From the NCBI GenBank assembly GCA_004524535.1, contig SDNY01000054.1:1-22578 (forward strand): a stretch of 22,578 nucleotides of DNA, given 5' to 3'. The position numbers and the translations under genes are program-made. Below, in pieces: positions 4,192 through 22,578 of the stretch. The notes beneath the pieces were generated by a model, which worked only from the letters and a program-made list of their open reading frames with translations, made no database searches and had not been told where the DNA came from. Origin of the DNA: Promethearchaeota archaeon (GTDB lineage Archaea > Asgardarchaeota > Lokiarchaeia > Sigyniarchaeales > SOKP01). The first letter of the stretch is position 1. Each line of letters begins with the position of its first letter.

Positions 4192-5052
4192 ATGGCAGAT
4201 GAAATAGAATCAACCTATATAGGAAAAAATGAAGGGTTAGTATTCATTGTACCAAAGGAACTTTTTGGAATGAAAATGGATAAAAAAATAGATCCTGAAA
4301 TAGCGAAAGAATTTAGTGGTTACATAAGGGATACTTTTAAGGGATTTCAGATTGCTGCTCAATCAAAAAAAGGCAATGAAAATAACACTAAAACGGAAAC
4401 ATCTCCTGAATTTTGGAAAGACTTTGAAAAAAAAGCAAAAGAATTAGGGGTTGATCTTATAGGGTATACTCCTGTTAATGAAAATTATATTTTTAAAGGC
4501 CTAAAAGTTTATGGGAAGAATGCTATTGTTCTTGGTCAAGAAATGATCTGGGAAAGAATTAAAAATGCCCCTAGTGTTGATTGCGGCGTAGAATCCTTTA
4601 GAGTATATAAAGAATTAGGAGAAAGCGTTATTGAATTAACCAATTACTTGAAAGAACAAGGATATAAAAGTGAAGCTCATCATCCTTTTGGCGGAAAACT
4701 ACTTTTTCCCTATCACGCAGTTGCTGCGGGTCTTGGGGCGGTGGGGATGAATGGTTTAGTAGTTACTCCCGAATTCGGTCCTCGGCAAAGATGGGGGATT
4801 ATTACCACCGATGCAGATGTTCCAGAGGTATCAGAAGAAAGACTTAAGGAAATGGAAACTCTTTGTAATAAATGTGAGGCTTGCATAAAGAATTGTAAGG
4901 GCAGCGCCACATTGGAAAACCCTACTGAAAAAGTAAAAGGTTCTGGAATTATTACTCGCATAGATCGCTCAAAATGTATTCATAGTCTGATCAATAATAA
5001 TTATTGTTCAGTTTGTTTAAAAGTATGTCCCTTAGGACATCCTAAAAAATAA
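4192..5052 (+). CDS. Short cytoplasmic reductive dehalogenase-like (RdhA core) protein
   Basis: AKELGVDLIGYT, NAIVLGQEM, AVAAGLGAVGMNGLVVTPEFGPRQR..IITTD, CNKCEACIKNC and CSVCLKVCP resemble RdhA cobalamin/Fe-S core motifs. An AGGTGA RBS lies upstream. Confidence 0.75.
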   Translation: MADEIESTYIGKNEGLVFIVPKELFGMKMDKKIDPEIAKEFSGYIRDTFKGFQIAAQSKKGNENNTKTETSPEFWKDFEKKAKELGVDLIGYTPVNENYIFKGLKVYGKNAIVLGQEMIWERIKNAPSVDCGVESFRVYKELGESVIELTNYLKEQGYKSEAHHPFGGKLLFPYHAVAAGLGAVGMNGLVVTPEFGPRQRWGIITTDADVPEVSEERLKEMETLCNKCEACIKNCKGSATLENPTEKVKGSGIITRIDRSKCIHSLINNNYCSVCLKVCPLGHPKK

Positions 5053-12657: not shown

Positions 12658-12747
12658 TAAATCTCAAATTTTAACAAACTGAATAACTTCTATTTTTTTT
12701 TGTTTTATCTTATAATTTTAGAAAATTTAATTATTATTTAATTATTA

Positions 12748-13509
12748 TTAGACAAATCCCTTCTTTTGCTGATATTCTTTTTTCCTTATTTTTAACAATT
12801 TACAAGTTTCTGTTATTGCCGTATCAGAACATCCCGCGATAATTTTACTTTCTTTTTGGTTTAATTTATTCGTAAGATAAATAGCAACACCTATTTTAAC
12901 TGTAAATCTTCTAGGTTTATGTATTTTGTAAAGAAAACTTTCAATGTCTTTATAACATTGTAATGTATCGTCAAATTTAATCCTATTTTTCTTGGAATCC
13001 TCTAATTTATCATATATCTGTCTAAATCTAGTCTGCCCTATTTTACATGATTTCTCAATACAAGCATTTTTTGAATTAAGTTCTTTAATATTAACATCTA
13101 TATTACAAACATTGGAGATACCAAATAGTTTTATCGCTTTTTTATTAAACCGTATTCCTTGTATCTTTTTACTATCCATTTTAATATTTTCAATTTCGTT
13201 CATCAAATGATATATATAGAGCTTCCCCATAGTAACGGAATAAGATTTAAAGAAATGTAAAACACGGTCATAGAAAACCTTAGAACGAATGGTATATTCT
13301 CCAAACTCACAAAACTTCAGTAAAAAATATCTGAACAAAGCCTTTTTTAAGTTTATTATCCTTCCTCTCTTCCCTGTTTCATCATATTTTTTTTTGCATT
13401 CCTTACAATCAGTTGACAAACCATCTTTTTTACTTCTATTTCTAGTAAAAAAATCATTCGTTGCTGGAAATTCTAATTTACAATGACAACAAGTTTTTGT
13501 TTGGATCAT
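12748..13509 (-). CDS. Hypothetical DNA-binding protein: C4 Zn finger, winged-helix-like region, TFB-like C-terminal HTH
   Basis: Zn ribbon KTCCHCK..F....FF......KDGLSTDCKECKK; central FLLKFCEFGEY.IRSK.FY...IQGIRF; C-terminal IGVAIYL...NQKESKIIAGCSDTAI...CKLL. Confidence 0.6.
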   Translation of the reverse strand: MIQTKTCCHCKLEFPATNDFFTRNRSKKDGLSTDCKECKKKYDETGKRGRIINLKKALFRYFLLKFCEFGEYTIRSKVFYDRVLHFFKSYSVTMGKLYIYHLMNEIENIKMDSKKIQGIRFNKKAIKLFGISNVCNIDVNIKELNSKNACIEKSCKIGQTRFRQIYDKLEDSKKNRIKFDDTLQCYKDIESFLYKIHKPRRFTVKIGVAIYLTNKLNQKESKIIAGCSDTAITETCKLLKIRKKEYQQKKGFV

Positions 13510-13553
13510 TTTATCTTTAAAAGTATATTATATATTCGTGAAGTATTCTAATA

Positions 13554-14789
13554 TCAGAGTCTAATCAATTCTGAAAGGGATTTTAGAGATAATCCTGTCT
13601 CTCTATGAAATATGAATATATTTGATATGAAATTGCAATTCTTTATGTTTTTTACCTTGTAGGCCCAATCTTTACGAGATAACTCTTTATCATAGTATTT
13701 TAAATGAGTATAATTAAGAATTTCAGCATCTTCTTCAGGATTATCTAAATCGAAAGTAAGGTGATCACCAAACCGGATTAGGTTTGAATTAATGAAATCA
13801 GTAAATCTAGGATTTTTTTTATAAAATTTTTCAATGTCATACTGAATAGGTCTCTTAATTAATTTAAATGAATTGATAATTAATTCCCCAGTATCAATTT
13901 GTAATACTTCGCTCACATTTCGATCTTTAATAGGTATGTCATTAATATTTGCTGCCAGAAGAATAATTAAACCTAAAGTTAAACGAACATTTAACCCGAA
14001 ACGACGTTTTATTGAGGAATCCAATAATGAAAGAACTAATTTTCGAAAATCATCTGTTAATGTGTACAAACCGATTTCTTTAATCCTATCTAGAATTGAT
14101 TTACATTTATCTAAGTCAAATAGATTATCAAAATATTTACTTTCGAATTTTTCGTTCCAATATCTGATTAAAACATGGTCCTTATTAGACAAATTGAAAA
14201 TACGATTATTTTTATGATATTTTTTATTCAAAATTCTATTTGCTTGATAAAACGCTACGAAAGCAATAATTTTAGGGAAATTGCCCATTTCATTAAATTC
14301 CTCTATTAATTTTCTAGATTTTTTGAAGATTTCGGAACTTACAAAAGTGTATTCTTTCTCTTTATTTTTTAGTATCAATAATGCGTTTTCCTTAATTTTT
14401 CTGTTTGAGACCTCTTGTTCCTTTTGACTTTTAACCAGAATTGGTAATGCGTTTTCCTTAATTTTTCTTTTTGAGTCCTCTTGTTCTTGATTTTCAACCA
14501 GAAGCTCATTTGTATATTTAATATGAGCGTTTTCTAGATAATTATCAACATTTTTTGTAATTAATGAAAATTTATCCCCTTTTTTTCCGATATATTTCTT
14601 TTCTACCATACTTAAAACGATTTTATAAAAATCATCTGTATTTATGGTAGGTAATCCAAAATTTTGAAAGAAATTTAATATATCAATAATCGTGAATAAG
14701 TTATTATTAGTTTTTGGGAGAAATTGAAGAAATTCTTCTTTTCTATTTAAAAAATTAAAAATAATCTGAGTCAATCTATCATCATTCAA
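13554..14789 (-). CDS. Hypothetical protein: wHTH, degenerate TFB/TFIIB-like cyclin repeats, RAMA-like C-terminal domain
   Basis: TTG start with a GGGAGG RBS, 12 nt downstream of the integrase stop. Motif resemblances are given in the findings. Confidence 0.55.
   Translation of the reverse strand: MNDDRLTQIIFNFLNRKEEFLQFLPKTNNNLFTIIDILNFFQNFGLPTINTDDFYKIVLSMVEKKYIGKKGDKFSLITKNVDNYLENAHIKYTNELLVENQEQEDSKRKIKENALPILVKSQKEQEVSNRKIKENALLILKNKEKEYTFVSSEIFKKSRKLIEEFNEMGNFPKIIAFVAFYQANRILNKKYHKNNRIFNLSNKDHVLIRYWNEKFESKYFDNLFDLDKCKSILDRIKEIGLYTLTDDFRKLVLSLLDSSIKRRFGLNVRLTLGLIILLAANINDIPIKDRNVSEVLQIDTGELIINSFKLIKRPIQYDIEKFYKKNPRFTDFINSNLIRFGDHLTFDLDNPEEDAEILNYTHLKYYDKELSRKDWAYKVKNIKNCNFISNIFIFHRETGLSLKSLSELIRL
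14379..14503. repeat. Imperfect intragenic duplication with 66-bp period
   Basis: TAATGCGTTTTCCTTAATTTTTCT... starts at 14379 and at 14445. Protein: QEQEDSKRKIKENALPIL versus KEQEVSNRKIKENALLIL. Confidence 0.85.
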
Positions 14790-14801
14790 TTGTCCCTCCC
14801 T

Positions 14802-16490
14802 CTAATTCATATAAAACATATCATCGATTACAAAAAGAAAATTTATTTCTAATAATTTTTTAAGAAGAATAAATATATCTTTTTTAACTTTAGTGGGATT
14901 ATTTTTCAATATAATCTCATTTAATTCGAAAAACGAAAGCCCTTTACATTCCCTTAATGAAAATTTTTGTTTAAGGTGAAATATTTCTTCTTTCTTAATA
15001 TTGTTAATTTTTTTTTCTGAATTAAACGAAAAATATGAACCGAATCTTTGAATAAAGCCTTTCTGAATCATATTATAGATTAATTGAGTAATTTCATCTG
15101 AAGTAATGTGATAATTATTATCAAGAAAGAATTCTAGGATATCTATAAATGAAAAATAATCTTTTTCAATCTTATCTTCTAAATACTTTTTAAAATTTAA
15201 TTGAAAAATCTTATCAATTTCTAATTTTCTTTTGGATAAAATTTCAATTTTTTTTTGAGAAAATCCAATTTTAACTGAAGGTTCAATAAAGTCTATGAAT
15301 TTTTTTAAATTTAACTCAACACTTCTTAGATGTTGTGTATAAATAATGTATAAAGGATCTAAAGGTTTATGACCAGCAATATATCGTAAATAATCTTCCC
15401 CTAAATCTTTTCTAACTTGATCTGTTTCGGTTATAAAGTATTTTCTTAATAAATGTGCTCTAATAGTTTGATATGGTTTAACATGCAAATGCAGGTGCTT
15501 TATTTTTTCAAAAGATTCCTTTAAATTTTGATTAAACTTGGATCGTAGAAAATCAACTTGGTATTGGATTTCTGGAAAGTAGCAATCTGATCTTTTTAAA
15601 AGAAATCTTATTTTGTTTTTACATTTTTCAGGGACATAATAATTTAAAAGAAGCATTAATTCTTCAGATATAAAGATCTGATGAATCTGTGCGTTTTTTT
15701 TTTTCGTTTTTACTTCAGGTATATAATATCTTCCTTTACCATTATATGAAAAATATTGTAAATCGTCCCATTTAGCGACTAGACAGTTTATTGCGTCTGA
15801 AATTCTTAAACCGGTTTGTGCTAAAAAAAGAGCAATAATTTGATATATAGGAGGCAAGTTATCTAAAAGATCATATAACAATTCTTTCGTGATAATTACT
15901 TCATATTTGCTTGATTTGCCAACATCACTTCTATTATTTAGCCAAGACTCACGAATTAGCGATCTTAAATCAGAGCGTACAAATCCCCAATATTTTGAAA
16001 GATTTCCCTGATGGGATAACCTCCAATTATAATCAAGAATAACTTTACCCTTATTAAAGCCATGTGAAGACTTTGGTAGATAATCTTGATGTAGAAGGAT
16101 CCACTCATTTCGAGATTTTTCATCAGGATTCCCCATGTTTTGGTTAAAATCATTATACATAGATAAAAAAGTTAGAGAATCACATTTGCTTAGATAATCG
16201 AATATCTGAAGATCTCTTTTTTGAGAAAAGATATGTTGATAAAATGGATTGCTTTTCAAATATCTAAACCATTTCTTCGTCTCGTTTAGATACCTAGGGA
16301 CTTTTTTATAATAGACCTTTTCACTAGCAATGTTACCGATAACACTAATAACAAATTTGATATTCTTTTCATGATTCCACCAATCCCATTTTTTTAAATA
16401 CTCTTCATACCTATTTTTTTTCCCATTAGATAATCTATCCATAGATTTGTATTTACGTAATAAATCTCTTTCTAATTCATTTGTCTCCAT
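14802..16490 (-). CDS. Tyrosine recombinase/integrase with C-terminal winged-helix extension
   Basis: The catalytic set appears intact: QTGLRISD (R), KTKK (K), HLLR (HxxR), IAGH (H), YIIY (Y). Start placed at ATG 16490 (METNEL), 7 nt after the upstream stop; 562 aa. Confidence 0.88.
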   Translation of the reverse strand: METNELERDLLRKYKSMDRLSNGKKNRYEEYLKKWDWWNHEKNIKFVISVIGNIASEKVYYKKVPRYLNETKKWFRYLKSNPFYQHIFSQKRDLQIFDYLSKCDSLTFLSMYNDFNQNMGNPDEKSRNEWILLHQDYLPKSSHGFNKGKVILDYNWRLSHQGNLSKYWGFVRSDLRSLIRESWLNNRSDVGKSSKYEVIITKELLYDLLDNLPPIYQIIALFLAQTGLRISDAINCLVAKWDDLQYFSYNGKGRYYIPEVKTKKKNAQIHQIFISEELMLLLNYYVPEKCKNKIRFLLKRSDCYFPEIQYQVDFLRSKFNQNLKESFEKIKHLHLHVKPYQTIRAHLLRKYFITETDQVRKDLGEDYLRYIAGHKPLDPLYIIYTQHLRSVELNLKKFIDFIEPSVKIGFSQKKIEILSKRKLEIDKIFQLNFKKYLEDKIEKDYFSFIDILEFFLDNNYHITSDEITQLIYNMIQKGFIQRFGSYFSFNSEKKINNIKKEEIFHLKQKFSLRECKGLSFFELNEIILKNNPTKVKKDIFILLKKLLEINFLFVIDDMFYMN

Positions 16491-16497
16491 TTTAAAA

Positions 16498-18342
16498 TTA
16501 CCCACTCGGGAAAAAAATATCTTGAATCCGTTTTGCCATTTTTTTGGCCCTAATATCAAAAAATTCAGTAAAATAGATTATTTTTTTCTTCTTGATCGAA
16601 GAATTGTGAAATTTCTTCATTTCTTCTTCATAATTCCTTGGAAAGTCCCAAGCTTCGAAATAGCCAGATGCGATCGAAGATTCAATACCTTCAACACTTG
16701 TCAGTATATCTTCTAGCCAACCCCAAGCTTGTCGATTCCTTGTTAGCTTTCCTTTCGATTTATTACCGTGATCTATCAAGATATAATTAAATATTGAATT
16801 TGAATTAGGACGTGAACTTTCATAATTCTTCTTTAATAAATCCGAGGGAAAAATTTTAAGCCAAAATACAGGGGGTTTCTTTTCTAATTTGTTTTTATCT
16901 TTCATAAAAAGCCAATTTTTCATTTTAAACACTGTTGAATTAAAAACAAACTGTGAACTCAAGGCTAATTGATATACAAATGAAATGTCAGATTTGCGAG
17001 ATCTTAGAGCTAACAACTTTTTAGGTAGGGTATCTGTCCAGAATTTTTCATTTAACTCATTATTTATCTTCTTTGCAAGTAAATTATAGTCTCGAGATTC
17101 TCCATTAATTAATCTCAGATCCAACATAACATCAACTTCTCTTTTTTTAAAGCGTTGTGAAAGGATGTTATAGATAAAATATTTTCCAAGAAATTGATGA
17201 AATTCCTTATCTTCGTTTTCTTCTTCGCAAAATAAATAAATGCAATAACTTGAATAAATAACACTTTTTGATCTAAAGTCATTAATAATAAATTTATTTC
17301 GAAATTCCTTATCATCGGGTTCAAGTGGAAGAAGGTCTATTATTGATTTGTTCAGTATTTTTAAGAATTTTGAAAAATTACTTTTATTTGTTATAATCTT
17401 AATTGCCTTACTTATTTTCTCAATGTTTATTTCTAAGGGATTTGTACGAGACATACTTATTTCTCGTTTATTATAATTTCCTGGATAGATGAGGTGAATC
17501 GCTAAATTTAATATATCATGGATTTTAAAATAATTATTATTTAACTTCTGCTTGGTTGATTCACTAAATTTTTCAATTAATTGACGACTCATGGGATTAA
17601 AATTAGATATTACTGAATATAACAAATCTAAAATTGAGTATTGAACCCCATAATTTTTAAAAACCAATAAATCAAAAGCCACATTAATATCTTCCCCATC
17701 ATAAGTAGCAATTTTCAACTTTTTATTTACTAATCCAAATATTCTTTCAATTCTATTAGTAACTTTTTTATCATCTTCACGATCTAGCCCAGCAAGAATA
17801 TCATTAATCTTTTTTGTAAATTCTTCTTTGTAAATAGCATTATCTCCAGTCTCGTTAAGGGTTTCCTTCAAATTTATCCAAGTAATATCTAAATCTTTGA
17901 TCTCCTCTTTAAATAGAAAAATATCTTTTATGATATTATAATATAAGTTAATATTATGAAATTTCTCATCAATAGCTATCTCACCAGTGGCAAAAACTGC
18001 TGAGAGCGCTGAACACCTCTGTAAACCATCTATTAGGAAATTTATCCATTCGGGTATTTGCTTTGAAGTATTAAATATTGTTCGATATTGTTCGATATTT
18101 GGATTTTTATTGTGGAGATACCACATTGTGATATCTCCAATCGGTATACCTTTAAAGAGAGATATTATTAAATCCTTGACTTTTTTTTTATTCCATACAA
18201 TTTTTCGTTGGATTCGAGGTACAATAGCCTTATTTTTTTTAACATCCCTGATTACACTAGAGATGGCCATCTCGCTTTCCCTTAATTCAACGTCATATAA
18301 TTCGTAATTTTCCTCAATATTCAAATTTTTTTGAATGGTCAT
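16498..18342 (-). CDS. DUF262 (GmrSD/ParB-like) domain protein with degenerate C-terminal HNH (DUF1524-like)
   Basis: VPRIQRKIVW, LI.SLFKGIPIG...W, IDGLQR, and a C-terminal KIFP..LL...NSIFNYILI...N. Confidence 0.82.
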   Translation of the reverse strand: MTIQKNLNIEENYELYDVELRESEMAISSVIRDVKKNKAIVPRIQRKIVWNKKKVKDLIISLFKGIPIGDITMWYLHNKNPNIEQYRTIFNTSKQIPEWINFLIDGLQRCSALSAVFATGEIAIDEKFHNINLYYNIIKDIFLFKEEIKDLDITWINLKETLNETGDNAIYKEEFTKKINDILAGLDREDDKKVTNRIERIFGLVNKKLKIATYDGEDINVAFDLLVFKNYGVQYSILDLLYSVISNFNPMSRQLIEKFSESTKQKLNNNYFKIHDILNLAIHLIYPGNYNKREISMSRTNPLEINIEKISKAIKIITNKSNFSKFLKILNKSIIDLLPLEPDDKEFRNKFIINDFRSKSVIYSSYCIYLFCEEENEDKEFHQFLGKYFIYNILSQRFKKREVDVMLDLRLINGESRDYNLLAKKINNELNEKFWTDTLPKKLLALRSRKSDISFVYQLALSSQFVFNSTVFKMKNWLFMKDKNKLEKKPPVFWLKIFPSDLLKKNYESSRPNSNSIFNYILIDHGNKSKGKLTRNRQAWGWLEDILTSVEGIESSIASGYFEAWDFPRNYEEEMKKFHNSSIKKKKIIYFTEFFDIRAKKMAKRIQDIFFPSG

Positions 18343-18363
18343 TAGTATATGAAATCATTCAAG

Positions 18364-18378
18364 TTTATAAATTTTTTT
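18364..18378 (-). promoter_or_regulatory. Putative BRE/TATA promoter for a leaderless DUF262 operon transcript
   Basis: TTTATAAA (18364-18371) is centred about 26 nt upstream of ATG 18342 and is preceded on the minus strand by an A-run. The AT-rich background limits certainty. Confidence 0.4.
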
Positions 18379-18484
18379 ATGAGTCTATTTAAATGAAAAA
18401 ATAAAAAAAAGATTTTTAAATTTCAAACGAAAATGATCAAATTTAATACAAGTTGAATTTGCTTGTAATTATGTTTGTAAACTT

Positions 18485-18520
18485 AAAAAAAAAAAAAAAT
18501 CCTTGCGAACTAAAGTTCGC
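18485..18520 (-). terminator. Hairpin plus long T-tract terminator
   Basis: On the minus strand, GCGAAC-ttta-GTTCGC lies 2 nt after the stop at 18523, followed by AAGGA and a 15-T tract. Confidence 0.65.
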
Positions 18521-18522
18521 TT

Positions 18523-18765
18523 CTAATCACTAAAATTTTTTCTTTGTAAAACACTATCTAACTGCTCTGCAAGCTTTATTGAATGTTCTCCAAGCAATCC
18601 AATGTTCTGGACTTCATTCACGCGTTTTAATGAATTTCGAGCACGGCGAATGAGTTTTCGATCAGATATAGCGAAATCATATTTACTGCAAGAGCTAGTT
18701 TGCTTAAATAGTCTCCTACCATGGTCTGGCTCGAAAACCACGTTATCTCTCAATATTGCATACAT
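18523..18765 (-). CDS. Small basic hypothetical protein (80 aa)
   Basis: ATG 18765 is preceded by a GTGA RBS-like motif. The ORF overlaps the end of the upstream ORF and is followed by a terminator. Confidence 0.5.
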   Translation of the reverse strand: MYAILRDNVVFEPDHGRRLFKQTSSCSKYDFAISDRKLIRRARNSLKRVNEVQNIGLLGEHSIKLAEQLDSVLQRKNFSD

Positions 18766-19042
18766 AATCTTCACGATATTTTATTTGCTTAAACATTTCA
18801 GATTGATTTTGAGCATATATTGCTAATATTCTATCTTCTTCATAGACATCAATATTTTTGATAGATTGCTTTTCATATAAGGGAATCTTCCTTTCTCTAT
18901 AAAAAAACCAATTTAGAGCATCCTTATAGTTTTTTTGTTTAATATTTTTTGGTATAATCTCTTGCATAATTTCTTGATAAATCTTAGTATGATATCTGAA
19001 TTCTTGGTTAGTTTTTACTTCGAGTTCATAGTTAAAGCGCAA
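18743..19042 (-). CDS. Small hypothetical protein (99 aa)
   Basis: TTG start preceded by AAGTGA, as seen for the SDR and AOR genes. Confidence 0.5.
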   Translation of the reverse strand: MRFNYELEVKTNQEFRYHTKIYQEIMQEIIPKNIKQKNYKDALNWFFYRERKIPLYEKQSIKNIDVYEEDRILAIYAQNQSEMFKQIKYREDYVCNIER

Positions 19043-19292
19043 AGATCTTCACTTCTTTTTTATCTATTCTTTTATATCAATTATATCTTAAAGCTTTTTA
19101 AAAGAAAAAATATAGAGATTATATTATTCTTAAAGACCATTTAAAATAAACGGTTTTAAATATTTTTTATTTCTTTTTTTATTTTATTTAATATTTTTTT
19201 ATTATAAAGAATAGATCTTAACTCTTAATACCCCTATAAAATAATATCAATTTTTTATAGATTTTAGATAATTTTATTCTTTATCTTTTTAA

Positions 19293-19318
19293 TTGAATTC
19301 TTAAAAATAAGAATTCAA
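19293..19318. repeat. Perfect 11-bp inverted repeat with 4-nt spacer
   Basis: TTGAATTCTTA-aaaa-TAAGAATTCAA in the divergent intergenic region. Confidence 0.8.
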
Positions 19319-19411
19319 AAAATTATTGATTTTTTGATAAATATTTATAAATACTAAAATATAATTAGTTTTAAAAAAAAAAAATTAAATTTTTAATTAA
19401 ACTTTCTCTAA

Positions 19412-21637
19412 ATGGCGAATAATAATATATTTGACTCTGATGGGGAGGAAACGGTGTGCTACGATATTGGTCCTAGTGGTAGACCACGTAAAATTCATTG
19501 TGGAGGTCCATTTATTAAGGTAAATGCAAAAATTCCTCAATTAGATAAGATTTTAAGAATGTCGGAAACAGATGCAGAAAACGAGGAGTTAATAAAGGAT
19601 GATGCAGAAAAATATCAAAACAAGGAAGAAGTTGAAGAACATATAAAAATTCCATCGAGCCTTATGGTGAATAGCGAAATGGACTCACTTATTGTTAATT
19701 TTCCTAATTTTCGAGCGAGTGTAATGACCGAAATTAAGAAAATTACAAATTTAATTGAATGTACTGATAACCAAAAAAAATTAATTTTAATGAAATCTGA
19801 GGAAATACTAGATAGACATATCTTGGGAGCAAAAAAGGGTGAAGTTACTATACGTAAAAATATAAACCTAAAAGCAATAGCTTCTGCCATTATTTATACG
19901 GTTATTATTTCAAATGAAGATATGCCAGAAATTGGTTCAACCCAGATAAGTAATATAGCTGGGATTAGTAATGACCTCTCTAGAACTTATAACAGATACT
20001 TTAGACATTTATATCCACGGATAAAAGAGGGATTTCATGAGCCTTCTGGATTTGTAAGAATTAGAAATATAATTTCTCAATATATTTTTGATTTAATAAA
20101 GGATAAAGAGATTGATTCATTGAAAATCGCTATATTTATAATAGATAATATTTTAAAGAGTGAAAATCTTCCAAATCAATTAAAGCAAGAAGACCTAAAT
20201 ATGCTTCATGAATTAATAACTCTTGATCGAGAGAATCTCTTAAAATATTTAACTGATTTAGTTGAAGTAATAAGACAGTTAATAATATCAAGTAAAGTCT
20301 ATAAAAAGATTGAAGCTTATATGGAAATAAAGGGCATAGCTGATTTCTTATGGGAAAAAGGCATAAATTTTTTTAAGTCTCAAAAAGGTTTTTATCGGAT
20401 TGTTTTACAGATATTTGACTTTTTAAAAGAACAATATCCAGACACCTTTCCTAGTAAAATGTATTCGAAAGATTTTCCCACTCAGGATTATAAGAAAATT
20501 GTAAGCGGAAAATTAAAAATATATATGGTAAAAAATATTTACAACGGAATATATTTTAAAAACGGAAACGGTAAATGCCCCGACTGCATAAGAGAAGGAT
20601 TTATCATTAACACAGATATTTCACGATTAGAAGCTATAGAACTTCATCATTTTTCTGATGTTAAAGAATTAGATTTTTCAGCAAAAAAGATTTATGATAT
20701 TTTTACTAAAAATCAATCTGATCCGCATGTTTTAGAAAAGATAATTGCCTTAATGGAATCAGAAAATGTGAGACTTATATGCAGAAACCATCATCAATTA
20801 TTGCATGCCAAGAATTATAACACTTTTCAATATTTTATCAATTGGGAAAAATTATTATCATTTCCTGCTGAAATTATTTTTATATTAGCAAAAACATGTG
20901 TAAATAATTATCGTGAAACTAAGGCTTTATCTAAAAAACATAAAGAACAAATTGTATTGCGTCTCATTGGAGAGATTAAAAAAAAATACATTATAGAGTT
21001 AATTTATGGTCCATATTGTCATACTTGTGGAGAAATAAATACTATAAAGTTTTTACCCTCTTTCGCCTTTGCCCATCTAAATAGTGAAATGAAAACAATA
21101 AATGCTTCTCGCTTATATGATAAGGGTCTTACATGTATAGAGATTTTACGGATTTTAAAGAAAGAGAGGGGAGCCTATATTTGTGCCAATTGTCATACTG
21201 TTTTTGACTATAAAGACTTTAATCTTTTTAAGATTATTTATGATAATAATGTTGATTATAAAACAGCTCTTAATGATTATAAAAGAGTACAAGAAAAATT
21301 TACAATTATACAAAATATCGTAAATGCTAAAAATCCTCTGGATAAATCTATAAATATTTCAGAAGTTTTTGAATGGTATATTATAGCTATTTATAAAATG
21401 TTGGAAGCTAATTATGATGTAACTCCAAAAACATTAGGCGATTATATGAATATTCACCCAAATACAGTGCATGAATTTTTTAAAGATAAGGAAATTAGAA
21501 CTCGTGACTTCTTAGAGCAATATGTTCAAATAATTGATGGAATCCCCCCACACCCTACCCATTATTATTTAACAGATAAAGGATATGAATTAGTTAAATT
21601 AATTATTCATTTCAGAGATTATTATAGTATCCTTTAG
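19412..21637 (+). CDS. Multidomain protein: TFB-like cyclin repeat, two Zn-binding HNH-like domains, C-terminal DtxR/MarR-like wHTH
   Basis: KAIASAIIY...TQISNIAGIS; CPDC...LHH...ICRNHH..LH; CHTC...FAH...ICANCH; YIIAIYKM...TPKTLGDYMNIHPNTV...YYLTDKG. Confidence 0.65.
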   Translation: MANNNIFDSDGEETVCYDIGPSGRPRKIHCGGPFIKVNAKIPQLDKILRMSETDAENEELIKDDAEKYQNKEEVEEHIKIPSSLMVNSEMDSLIVNFPNFRASVMTEIKKITNLIECTDNQKKLILMKSEEILDRHILGAKKGEVTIRKNINLKAIASAIIYTVIISNEDMPEIGSTQISNIAGISNDLSRTYNRYFRHLYPRIKEGFHEPSGFVRIRNIISQYIFDLIKDKEIDSLKIAIFIIDNILKSENLPNQLKQEDLNMLHELITLDRENLLKYLTDLVEVIRQLIISSKVYKKIEAYMEIKGIADFLWEKGINFFKSQKGFYRIVLQIFDFLKEQYPDTFPSKMYSKDFPTQDYKKIVSGKLKIYMVKNIYNGIYFKNGNGKCPDCIREGFIINTDISRLEAIELHHFSDVKELDFSAKKIYDIFTKNQSDPHVLEKIIALMESENVRLICRNHHQLLHAKNYNTFQYFINWEKLLSFPAEIIFILAKTCVNNYRETKALSKKHKEQIVLRLIGEIKKKYIIELIYGPYCHTCGEINTIKFLPSFAFAHLNSEMKTINASRLYDKGLTCIEILRILKKERGAYICANCHTVFDYKDFNLFKIIYDNNVDYKTALNDYKRVQEKFTIIQNIVNAKNPLDKSINISEVFEWYIIAIYKMLEANYDVTPKTLGDYMNIHPNTVHEFFKDKEIRTRDFLEQYVQIIDGIPPHPTHYYLTDKGYELVKLIIHFRDYYSIL

Positions 21638-21772
21638 ACGGAATTTAACTTATTTGCTAAATGTTATTTCGATAATTAATAATCAGTTTAGGGTTTAGCG
21701 AATTAACAAGAAATTTAAAAAAAAGTGATTCTCTATATTTAATTAATTATTATAAATTATAAAAAAAGCATT

Positions 21773-21778
21773 AAGTGA
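21773..21778 (+). promoter_or_regulatory. Archaeal-type RBS (AAGTGA) for the AOR gene
   Basis: Lies 6 nt upstream of TTG 21785. The same motif precedes the SDR gene and ORF 19042. Confidence 0.5.
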
Positions 21779-21784
21779 TTAAAT

Positions 21785-22578
21785 TTGTCAAAAATTAAAG
21801 AAGTAGTAATACCAGACGATATACACGGTTATTCTCAGGTTAGATTAGATGTTGACTTAACGAGTGGAGAAATTAAAGAATCAACTCTATCCAATGAATT
21901 CTGTCGAGACTGGATTGGCGGCTACGGATTTTAGATTGTATTTAACAGTCTAACTGGAATTGCTGCTAAGGTTTTATGGGACGAATTAAAACCTGGTGTT
22001 GACCCATTAAGTCCGGACAATGTGTTAATCTATGCACAGGGTCCTTTTCCTACAACGATCTTACCAACAAGCTCTAAATATGGGTTATTTGCAAAATCTC
22101 CATTAACTGGAATGTTTGGGATGTCCATATCCTCAGGAAGTGTTGGTGCTATGGCTCGACGCGCCGGAATTAATATGGTTGTTTTTAAGGGTAAGGCTCC
22201 TGAACCCGTTTATCTTGTGGTTGATGATGATGACCGATATTTAGTACCTTGTAAAGATACATTATCGGGGAAAGGTTGCTGGGAAACAGAAGAAATAATA
22301 AGGGAGGAATTTCAAGATCAAAGACTTGCTGTATTAAGTATTGGTCCAGCAGGTGAGAGAATGTCCAAAATGGCTTGCATTACAAACGATAGAAATCGTC
22401 AAGCTGGAAGAACTGGAATGGGAGCTGTGATGGGTTCTAAAAACCTTAAAGCTATAGCTTTTAGAGGTACAAAAGGAACCAAAGTTGCACATCCAGTAGA
22501 ATTTTACAAAATTGCTAAGAAACTAATTAAAGTCGCTAATGGTCCTGCGACAGCAAAATACCGTGATCAAGGTACGCC
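21785..22578 (+). CDS. aor: Aldehyde:ferredoxin oxidoreductase (tungstopterin AOR family), N-terminal part, interrupted by a 30-nt insertion; runs off the window
   Basis: Manual translation: MSKIKEVVIPDDIHGYSQVRLDVDLTSGEIKE...WIGGYGF*IVFNSLTGI AAKVLWDELKPGVDPLSPDN...AKSPLTG...IGPAGE...AGRTGMGAVMGSKNLKAIA. The TAG at 21932-21934 is the only stop in the frame. Confidence 0.9.
21930..21959 (+). other. Candidate 30-nt bulge-helix-bulge/loop (tRNA-endonuclease-type) intron in the aor mRNA
   Basis: In-frame stop, 9-bp internal hairpin, 8-bp exon-exon stem and two offset 3-nt bulges. Excision gives GGA TTT GCT GCT AAG (GFAAK). Confidence 0.65.

Follow-up and report, generated by a model that had tools for sequence, protein, structure and literature searches.

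A predicted 30-nucleotide bulge-helix-bulge-type intron in the aldehyde:ferredoxin oxidoreductase gene of a Promethearchaeota archaeon

The window analyzed here is a stretch of 22,578 nucleotides (nt) that comprises the entire contig SDNY01000054.1 (G000:C144) of a Promethearchaeota archaeon genome (GCA_004524535.1, hereafter G000; 3.66 Mb, 30% GC, 99% complete). Analysis of the 3' end of the window revealed a reading frame resembling aldehyde:ferredoxin oxidoreductase (aor) that is open from its TTG start codon at 21785 to a TAG codon at 21932-21934 and then resumes in the same frame. The original prediction, made from the letters of the sequence, had interpreted the codons around this stop as a bulge-helix-bulge (BHB) intron that is removed from the mRNA by the tRNA splicing endonuclease EndA. 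The part in front of the stop (exon 1) could be aligned with the N-termini of 28 uninterrupted orthologues through the motif DWIGGYG(F), and the part behind it (exon 2) matches the Pfam family AFOR_N from profile position 33 (E = 6e-57). The last 149 nt of the window overlap exactly with the end of contig C27. With positions 21930-21959 removed, the frame read across this overlap is open for 640 codons, and a gene for a 4Fe-4S ferredoxin-like protein follows. Degradation of aor beyond the window, which the original prediction had named as an outcome speaking against an intron, was thus not found; the gene is intact and encodes 640 amino acids (aa). On the basis of its AFOR_N domain and full-length frame, the host gene is an aldehyde:ferredoxin oxidoreductase gene. 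Twelve further AOR-like matches were detected elsewhere in G000, each as one uninterrupted tblastn match; as they are only 25 to 35% identical, aor is the sole copy of its orthologue group in this genome. Removal of 21930-21959 yields the sequence ...DWIGGYGFAAKVLWDE, and the same product results from excision of 21930-21959, 21931-21960, or 21932-21961. The insert sequence occurs once in G000 (blastn-short and regular-expression searches), which rules out that it is a genomic repeat.

Comparison with the genomes of relatives (designated by G numbers) confirmed that the ten codons of the insert are extra. Of 30 orthologous loci, 28 are uninterrupted and read DWIGGYGF[G/A]AK, and none of these 28 contains the additional codons. 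The other two, G000 and G020, are longer by 30 nt at one and the same codon, and a TAG is present in each insert. G020 is a Promethearchaeota archaeon from the family of G000 and from a different genus, which fits the Asgard-like host that had been predicted. The closest relative of G000 does not have the insert; the genome G008, from the same genus, is intronless and encodes a protein 96% identical to that of G000 over its whole length. Matches to aor were found in 124 of the 153 genomes of the order and in 131 of the 399 genomes of the phylum, and a stop codon together with a longer span occurred only in G000 and G020. A pattern scan of genome contigs gave nine matches, of which only the G020 contig was relevant and the other eight were bacterial; this pattern was modeled on G000 and G020, is blind to introns of the L049 type described below, and was expected to give about eight chance matches. 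A scan of metagenomes that was anchored on exon codons only and permitted any 20 to 50 nt between them revealed three contigs with an insert (L049, L050, and L051). The inserts of L049 and L051 consist of 30 nt with a TAG, giving insert lengths of 30, 30, 30, 30, and 32 nt over the five alleles, and the TAG stands at the identical place in four of them. The exception is L050, the 32-nt insert of which contains no stop codon and shifts the frame, so that this allele could be rescued by excision only. The five independent assemblies are concordant on the insert site, which speaks against an assembly artifact.

All features named in the original prediction (the TAG, the exon-exon stem, the central helix, the two bulges, and the intron hairpin) were found where it had placed them (Table 1). 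RNAfold applied to 21905-21980 recovered this architecture unaided, with a free energy of -23.2 kcal/mol compared to a shuffle mean of -12.45 kcal/mol (z = -4.82; none of 200 shuffles was as stable). In an alignment of the five alleles, 91.5% of 130 cells (26 pairs) are standard-paired, versus 29 to 51% when the partners are slid by one to three columns. Paired cells amount to 85% in the outer helix and to 96.7% in its extension, where one pair is changed on both sides. The comparison of alleles for covariation, proposed earlier as a check, revealed compensatory changes: both partners are altered in five pairs, of which the 9-bp hairpin contains four. For four of the five alleles, the minimum-energy fold corresponds to the shared architecture. 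All five have a CGG/CYG central helix (with G.U in two and G-C in three), followed by A.G or A.C at the fourth position. Likewise in all five, an AUU bulge lies between the 3-bp central helix and a hairpin of 8 to 9 bp, and the second site is located 2 nt 3' of the fourth position of the central helix, an arrangement that corresponds to the relaxed BHB motifs of the HBh' or bulge-helix-loop (BHL) form. If each bulge is cut behind its second nucleotide, as the EndA rule predicts, precisely the insert would be removed and GGYGF[G/A]AK restored in every allele, with no free parameter. The exact 30-nt removal and the recovery of GGYGFAAK that had been claimed for G000 therefore extend to all five alleles, including the 32-nt variant.

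The exons flanking the insert were compared among interrupted and uninterrupted genes. After excision, the three full-length insert-bearing genes encode 638 to 640 aa, the two partial ones are open to the contig end, and no further lesions were present in any of them. With L049 as the outgroup, 26 synonymous and 9 nonsynonymous codon changes were counted on the G000 branch and 30 and 10 on the intronless G008 branch; with G005 as the outgroup, the L049 branch showed 59 synonymous and 12 nonsynonymous changes. To judge from these counts, the interrupted aor is under purifying selection like its intronless sister, and the gene is not decaying. Because the two strands of the exon helix both encode protein, the structure is carried by synonymous sites. 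The codons TAC-GGA, which form the 5' strand of the central helix and the first bulge base, are present in all five intron alleles; among the 28 intronless orthologues, TAC occurs in four, GGA in six, and both in one. The aor genes of G000 and G008 are 94.1% identical over 1914 nt. GGC GGC TAC GGA in G000 corresponds to GGG GGA TAT GGT in G008, i.e., four consecutive third-position differences flanked by 20 and 35 identical bases, and at least four differences were found in just 36 of 1903 12-nt windows. Selection for the fold could explain this cluster, as could a short tract of co-conversion.

The five intron alleles are scattered over a quick IQ-TREE phylogeny computed from 33 orthologues. 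Five changes are needed to explain their distribution, at least four of which are forced by well-supported branches, and the sister of G000 on this tree has no intron. The scatter points to either frequent loss or movement of the intron between alleles. Other irregularities were observed in the aor genes of relatives. The gene of G085 (L036 = G085:C13:35000-36400, at about 815-830) has a 1-nt deletion directly after GGYGFGAK (AAGG to AAG). This deletion has no connection with the intron and represents a frameshift or a sequencing error. In G281 (C239:17-406) and G056 (C143:3363-3749), the sequences matching the N-terminal part of aor contain one TGA each, with unchanged length.

Searches for the splicing machinery revealed two EndA paralogues of 201 aa each in G000, encoded on contigs C100 and C84. 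The best match of the C100 protein is to the catalytic subunits of heterotetrameric enzymes (3p1z_B, E = 7.6e-37). In this protein, Tyr, His, and Lys are conserved, and its alignment to 3p1z_B extends across the N-terminal loop with the Lys of that loop. In the C84 protein, Ser replaces the catalytic His of Methanocaldococcus jannaschii EndA. The two copies correspond to the pattern of an (alpha-beta)2 enzyme with an L1 loop, from which the assembly of the subunits and their specificity would follow. RtcB is encoded on contig C101 (561 bits), and G000 thus combines RtcB with an EndA of the (alpha-beta)2 pattern that has a specificity loop, whereas an (alpha-beta)2 or epsilon2 enzyme with such a loop is expected of hosts of relaxed BHB introns. 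The available text of PMC5829648 describes for Asgard archaea an (alpha-beta)2 EndA with an L1 insert that confers broad specificity and permits relaxed motifs. According to the accessible part of a 2026 preprint (10.64898/2026.10.13.758758), two EndA paralogues occur in 44 of 60 Asgard genomes, and tRNA genes are heavily interrupted. ARAGORN reported only 20 tRNA genes in the 99%-complete G000 genome and called 11 of them with an intron, several evidently mis-parsed; calls so few, intron-rich, and mis-parsed are consistent with heavily interrupted tRNA genes.

Inserts of the same kind were found in six other genes of G000 (Table 1). In rnhB, which reads MTDLIICGLDEAGR / I*FVSSCMQK / GPVIGP (the asterisk denotes a stop codon), a 30-nt insert with a TAA lies inside the DEAGRG motif. 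It shows BHB geometry, with a central helix of UGGC/GCAA that includes a G.A mismatch and with a 10-bp hairpin. All seven cases are supported by their Pfam profiles, which resume in exon 2 where exon 1 leaves them, and the cut rule restores the conserved motifs in the six other genes as well. The motifs split in G000 include the P-loop, DEAGRG, SGGLDTS, DxHxxG, and GGYGF. The seven inserts have a common build, consisting of 1 nt, a hairpin of 23 to 25 nt, 4 nt of H', and 2 bulge nt. Those of the Obg-like and Ras-family GTPase genes fold as strict hBHBh' motifs; those of argG and the B12-binding subunit gene have four standard pairs in H, yet are not strict motifs in RNAfold. A purine-purine mismatch in H is present in three of the seven (aor, rnhB, and the AMP-binding enzyme gene), and the imperfection of the aor motif is therefore ordinary in G000. 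The site of the Obg-like GTPase intron is occupied by an intron in 4 of 30 loci of relatives (including G001, G003, and G007); in G015, another, longer insert lies a few codons further upstream (L078). The rnhB intron was found in 9 of 30 loci of relatives and in one partial locus, with quite different hairpins.

Inserts of this build were sought with genome-wide scans for BHB motifs that join open reading frames (ORFs). The first scan required at least 70 codons in both exons, was blind to 5'-proximal introns, and gave 2613 matches versus 2608 to 2641 in controls with slid partners. The second scan, with an exon 1 of at least 4 codons and introns of 24 to 40 nt, gave 1030 matches versus 652 to 1135 in the controls. 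The search for similar inserts that had been suggested in the original prediction thus demonstrated no bulk excess over controls but yielded six Pfam-supported further cases on inspection. The seven cases were chosen by eye among the matches listed (70 lowest-energy and 363 further matches) and were then checked against Pfam. Because they were hand-picked from noisy scans, their number is a lower bound, i.e., at least seven. A scan for single in-frame stops with at least 45 codons on each side gave 242 candidates, mostly adjacent genes. Candidates on C110 (NadE-like), C65, and C89 were rejected, their putative introns being ordinary coding sequence in another phase, and several other scan matches were rejected as mid-protein motifs with a spurious exon 1.

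Table 1. Coordinates of the aor gene parts, of the predicted RNA elements (window positions), and of the candidate mini-introns in G000
Feature	Position	Strand	Remarks
aor exon 1	21785..21929	+	TTG start; 48 codons and base 1 of the split Phe codon
Predicted mini-intron, 30 nt, relaxed bulge-helix-bulge type	21930..21959	+	Extra versus orthologues; same-site inserts in 4 other alleles
In-frame TAG	21932..21934	+	First full intron codon; within the 5' arm of the hairpin
aor exon 2	21960..22578	+	Extends beyond the window onto G000 contig C27 (minus strand)
Outer helix h, 5' strand, exon 1	21915..21922	+	Pairs with 21962-21969; 8 bp, two G-U
Outer helix h, 3' strand, exon 2	21962..21969	+	Partner of 21915-21922
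Outer-helix extension, 5' strand	21906..21911	+	6 pairs with 21970-21975, added by RNAfold
Outer-helix extension, 3' strand	21970..21975	+	Partner of 21906-21911
Central helix H, 5' strand ACGG	21924..21927	+	CGG pairs with CUG 21954-21956; A21924 opposite G21957
Central helix H', 3' strand CUGG, within intron	21954..21957	+	3 pairs and an A.G mismatch with 21924-21927
5' bulge AUU	21928..21930	+	Predicted cut after 21929; AUU in 5/5 alleles
3' bulge AAU	21958..21960	+	Predicted cut after 21959; within a 5x2 internal loop if A.G and U.U are not stacked
Intron hairpin h'	21931..21953	+	21931-21939/21945-21953, 9 bp (one U.G), 5-nt loop 21940-21944
Candidate intron, aor	C144 (window 21930-21959)	+	30 nt; AFOR_N from position 33
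Candidate intron, rnhB (RNase HII)	C98:21969-21998 (L060:1070-1099)	minus	30 nt; RNase_HII from position 9
Candidate intron, argG	C8:15418-15447 (L058:1419-1448)	minus	30 nt; SGGLDTS motif; Pfam from position 12
Candidate intron, Obg/YGR210-like GTPase	C174:1980-2010 (L056:1481-1511)	minus	31 nt; P-loop GKPS/SGKST (split at the slash); MMR_HSR1 from position 11
Candidate intron, Ras-family GTPase	C161:11851-11880 (L091:852-881)	minus	30 nt; N-terminus; Pfam from position 4
Candidate intron, B12-binding mutase subunit	C113:6524-6555 (L057:825-856)	minus	32 nt; DxHxxG motif; Pfam from position 12
Candidate intron, AMP-binding enzyme (acetoacetyl-CoA-synthetase-like)	C74:9870-9899 (L059:1371-1400)	minus	30 nt; Pfam exon 1 6-193, exon 2 223-377

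Every sequence-level test that was run favors the BHB mRNA intron of the original prediction. Positions 21930-21959 of the window very probably constitute a 30-nt archaeal BHB-type intron, of the relaxed HBh' form, in the aor pre-mRNA. This interpretation is supported by the five alleles with an insert at the same site, the compensatory changes, the cut rule, the purifying selection, the intact gene, the presence of EndA and RtcB, and the six similar inserts. According to the mechanism proposed here, the transcript would fold such that exon 1 pairs with exon 2 (helix h). The short helix CGG/CUG with its A.G juxtaposition would separate two 3-nt bulges, and the 9-bp hairpin would form the body of the intron. 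A two-subunit EndA, composed of an alpha subunit (C100) and a His-less beta subunit (C84), would cut after the second bulge nucleotide on each side, i.e., after 21929 and after 21959. RtcB (C101) would ligate the exons, with a predicted junction of GGCTACGGAT and TTGCTGCTAAG, and ligation would restore GGYGFAAK and the 640-aa tungsten-type aldehyde:ferredoxin oxidoreductase. We infer both that cleavage and ligation occur and that they are performed by EndA and RtcB. The early in-frame stop that four of the five aor alleles share with several of the other introns may limit translation of the unspliced RNA.

Several observations weigh against this interpretation. By its predicted fold, the aor motif is not a strict hBHBh' motif. 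Its central helix consists of three standard pairs plus A.G (G000, G020, and L050) or A.C (L049 and L051), and the predicted 3' cut falls in a 5x2 internal loop. In the RNAfold structure, A21924/G21957 and U21923/U21961 are not paired and are drawn as a 2x5 internal loop, so that the 3' bulge is present only when the A.G and U.U juxtapositions are counted as stacked. In G020, the outer helix is weak (5 of 8 pairs) and the minimum-energy fold departs from the shared structure. The covariation score over the five alleles (0.362 versus a shuffled mean of 0.267, matched by none of 500 shuffles) is, like the other shuffle figures, indicative only, because the alleles are only five related sequences and their kinship inflates such tests. 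In the probable source run, the Logan contigs end at 21864 and restart at 22091 and thus do not cover the insert; a second DNA run (X2) has no contig across 21880-22029. No spliced aor RNA of G000 was seen in the RNA runs, which held only contigs of relatives. The RNA contigs from two of these runs have intronless junctions and differ from G000 at 4 to 5 of about 35 bases; they therefore originate from relatives and are uninformative on splicing.

Among the alternatives, the one that survives best, although it is very improbable, is a structured RNA element with another role that is not spliced by EndA and RtcB. Such an element might serve for binding, for processing by another nuclease, or as an attenuator with a 49-aa peptide and a re-initiated protein. 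Conservation of a structure alone names no enzyme, and to that extent the folding data would suit such an element. However, no start codon is conserved after the insert, and function needs both halves of the invariant motif to be joined. A search of 21700-22200 against Rfam gave no match, and the EndA geometry together with the cut rule restores the frame exactly in five aor alleles and in six other genes.

Even less probable is a pseudogene or an insertion scar, i.e., a slippage duplication or the footprint of a mobile element in a gene that is no longer expressed as protein. Such a scar would account for the in-frame stop and for the closest relative lacking the insert. It would also account for the flanking 6-nt direct repeat, to which the original prediction had drawn attention as a caveat. 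This repeat was indeed found in imperfect form in G000 (GGATTT/GGAATT) and in perfect form in G020 (GGATTT), but it is missing in L049 and L051, which weakens the caveat. In addition, five diverged alleles have retained the insert at a single site, with compensatory changes, and the insert sequence is unique in the genome. The three full-length and two partial insert-bearing genes show no other lesions, and the G000 branch and the intact sister gene have equal ratios of synonymous to nonsynonymous changes.

The chance that the ribosome passes the insert by programmed translational bypassing is lower again. Bypassing would involve take-off at GGA or UUU before the UAG, a slide over the hairpin, and landing 30 nt downstream. 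The arrangement in G000, where GGA-UUU-UAG is followed by the hairpin and by a second GGA 30 nt on, and the perfect GGAUUU repeat of G020 would allow this, and the stop within a stem resembles that of T4 gene 60. However, L049 and L051 lack a matching pair of take-off and landing codons, as their landing place reads GCA-AUU or GCA-AUC and corresponds to neither GGA nor UUU, and L050 has no stop after the take-off site. A hop from GGA to GGA in G000 would give Ile where the 28 intronless orthologues have Phe. Moreover, a hop does not need the conserved CGG/CYG intron-exon helix or the exon-exon helix, and the BHB geometry is common to the six other G000 inserts. Least probable of all is read-through of the TAG by pyrrolysine or a suppressor to a protein with a 10-residue insertion: the insert length is a multiple of three in four of five alleles, with a single TAG, and some Asgard lineages are said to use pyrrolysine, but the 99%-complete genome has no PylS (best match 26 bits versus a cut-off of 178; pylT was not searched), the 32-nt insert of L050 shifts the frame, covariation of the hairpin is not accompanied by conservation of the inserted "peptide" (*IVFNSLTGI versus *FAISELTGF), and the insertion lies inside a motif that is invariant in 28 orthologues.

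A broader proposal is considerably more tentative than the BHB intron in aor itself. It is possible, though we consider it doubtful, that this Asgard family runs routine EndA/RtcB splicing of mRNAs, with at least seven genes of G000 interrupted in their most conserved motifs by enzyme-less, mobile-like mini-introns of about 30 nt, and that splicing could conceivably gate the expression of genes for central metabolism and housekeeping. Repeated gain and loss among close relatives suggests that the introns behave as mobile elements. Such mini-introns could have been spread by reverse splicing or by homing with a nuclease acting in trans.

Directly upstream of aor, the window contains a stretch of about 9.1 kb (about 12662-21796) that has no counterpart in the 8.4-kb stretch of G008 compared. 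It ends about 12 nt inside the start of aor. The start codon is TTG in G000 and ATG in G008, and 8 positions of the first 20 nt of the gene differ between the two. The stretch contains a DUF262-like gene and a further large gene on the minus strand and an ORF of 741 aa (19412-21637, plus strand) that directly precedes aor. A 289-aa gene that precedes aor in G008, L049, and L050 is located at 4195-5043 in the window. The 741-aa ORF belongs to a multicopy family in G000 (45% identity on C36, 36% on C98, and 32% on C127). An Atlas structure model hints at a region resembling the TFIIB cyclin fold and at a C-terminal winged helix. By eye, two conserved CxxC...HH...C.NHH motifs have an unconfirmed HNH-like look; the ORF matched no Pfam or NCBIfam family and no nuclease family. 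A paralogue of this ORF lies 1.2 kb upstream of the rnhB intron. No homologue was found beside the four other aor intron alleles, upstream of rnhB in 12 usable stretches of relatives (5 intron-bearing and 7 intronless; two additional ones were too short for a judgment), or adjoining the other G000 introns with known flanks. A role of the 741-aa ORF as a homing nuclease tied to the introns is therefore not supported.

Other in-frame stop codons were observed in G000. Three paralogous genes on C27 (minus strand), C83 (plus strand), and C145 (plus strand) contain a TGA in the context ...LDR(T/V)(F/Y)PTDDC(S/G)I*(I/V)L(G/A)P.... These sites, with long open frames on both sides, look like selenocysteine sites; by eye, their context is HdrA-like. 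On C167, C133, and C80, a gene pair occurs in three near-identical copies, in each of which an in-frame TAG links the two genes (...GAGPEDFKEYDF(N/D)DL*E...MQIYIDTELWV); this pair is probably a repeated element.

The present analysis adds candidate introns in an Asgard metabolic gene and in at least six other genes of the same genome. In the literature searched, which did not extend to subscription journals and supplements, crenarchaeal cbf5 is the one archaeal coding sequence for which splicing by the tRNA-splicing enzymes is reported, a second mRNA case being a 5' untranslated region in Haloferax; no further BHB introns in Asgard archaea or in other protein-coding genes were found. If the predicted splicing takes place, gene callers would systematically truncate or split such genes, and metabolic reconstructions from Asgard metagenome-assembled genomes would miss them or call them pseudogenes. 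The closest archaeal relatives of eukaryotes would then splice many mRNAs by protein only, which would bear on the origin of intron tolerance and of the mRNA functions of RtcB and TSEN. Short substrates and two recombinant proteins would in that case provide a tractable system to study the gain of BHB introns at conserved codons.

Short mRNA inserts are known from several systems with which the aor insert can be compared. In T4 gene 60 and in the mitochondrial byp elements, a short stop-containing hairpin insert likewise lies in a conserved coding region and is not seen by gene callers. Unlike these bypass elements, aor has no matching codons in two of five alleles, has conserved intron-exon helices, and includes one stop-free allele. 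In HAC1 and XBP1, a short mRNA intron is excised at stem-loops by protein only and the exons are ligated by a tRNA ligase (RtcB or Trl1), which changes the frame. Unlike in the mechanism predicted for aor, the nuclease there is IRE1 and not EndA, the motif is another, and splicing is regulated by stress. The EndA of Haloferax volcanii, in which a BHB intron occurs in the HVO_1309 transcript, is homodimeric. As described in the available text of PMC7714728, the HVO_1309 intron resembles the aor intron in that an mRNA is the substrate of the tRNA splicing endonuclease. It differs in being located in the 5' untranslated region of a gene of a euryarchaeon, whereas the aor intron lies in the reading frame. 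The same text gives cbf5 and the newly found HVO_1309 leader as the only cases known by 2020.

The relaxed-BHB introns of tRNA genes, as presented in the accessible part of PMC5829648, share with the aor intron a helix, a 3-nt bulge, a short central helix, and a second site in a relaxed bulge or loop. They also share the cuts after the second bulge nucleotide, which are predicted ones in aor, and an enzyme type with an L1 loop. The aor intron differs in that its substrate would be an mRNA without a tRNA body. The introns of crenarchaeal cbf5 genes are 16 to 44 bp long and often have relaxed motifs (Watanabe 2002; Yoshinari 2006; Yokobori 2009, PMC2738675), according to the portion of this literature that was available; in the corresponding portion of PMC2738675, no archaeal pre-mRNA splicing besides that of cbf5 is given as confirmed at that time. 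The aor intron does not belong to the cbf5 type, which is defined by a catalytic-residue codon of cbf5 in Desulfurococcales and Sulfolobales. Its host gene encodes a metabolic enzyme rather than an RNA modification enzyme, its host is an Asgard archaeon (Promethearchaeota) and not a member of the Crenarchaeota, and it is one of at least seven introns in one genome, in which cbf5 itself is uninterrupted (TIGR00425 positions 5 to 320, no stops). Splicing of cbf5 has been shown experimentally, whereas the aor intron is known here from its sequence. The two introns resemble each other in being short, in lying in a protein-coding gene, in having a relaxed motif, and in interrupting a functionally essential codon region. 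They also have in common a patchy pattern of gain and loss, a link to hetero-oligomeric EndA, and the blindness of gene callers to them. The aor intron would thus work like the cbf5 intron without being homologous to it.

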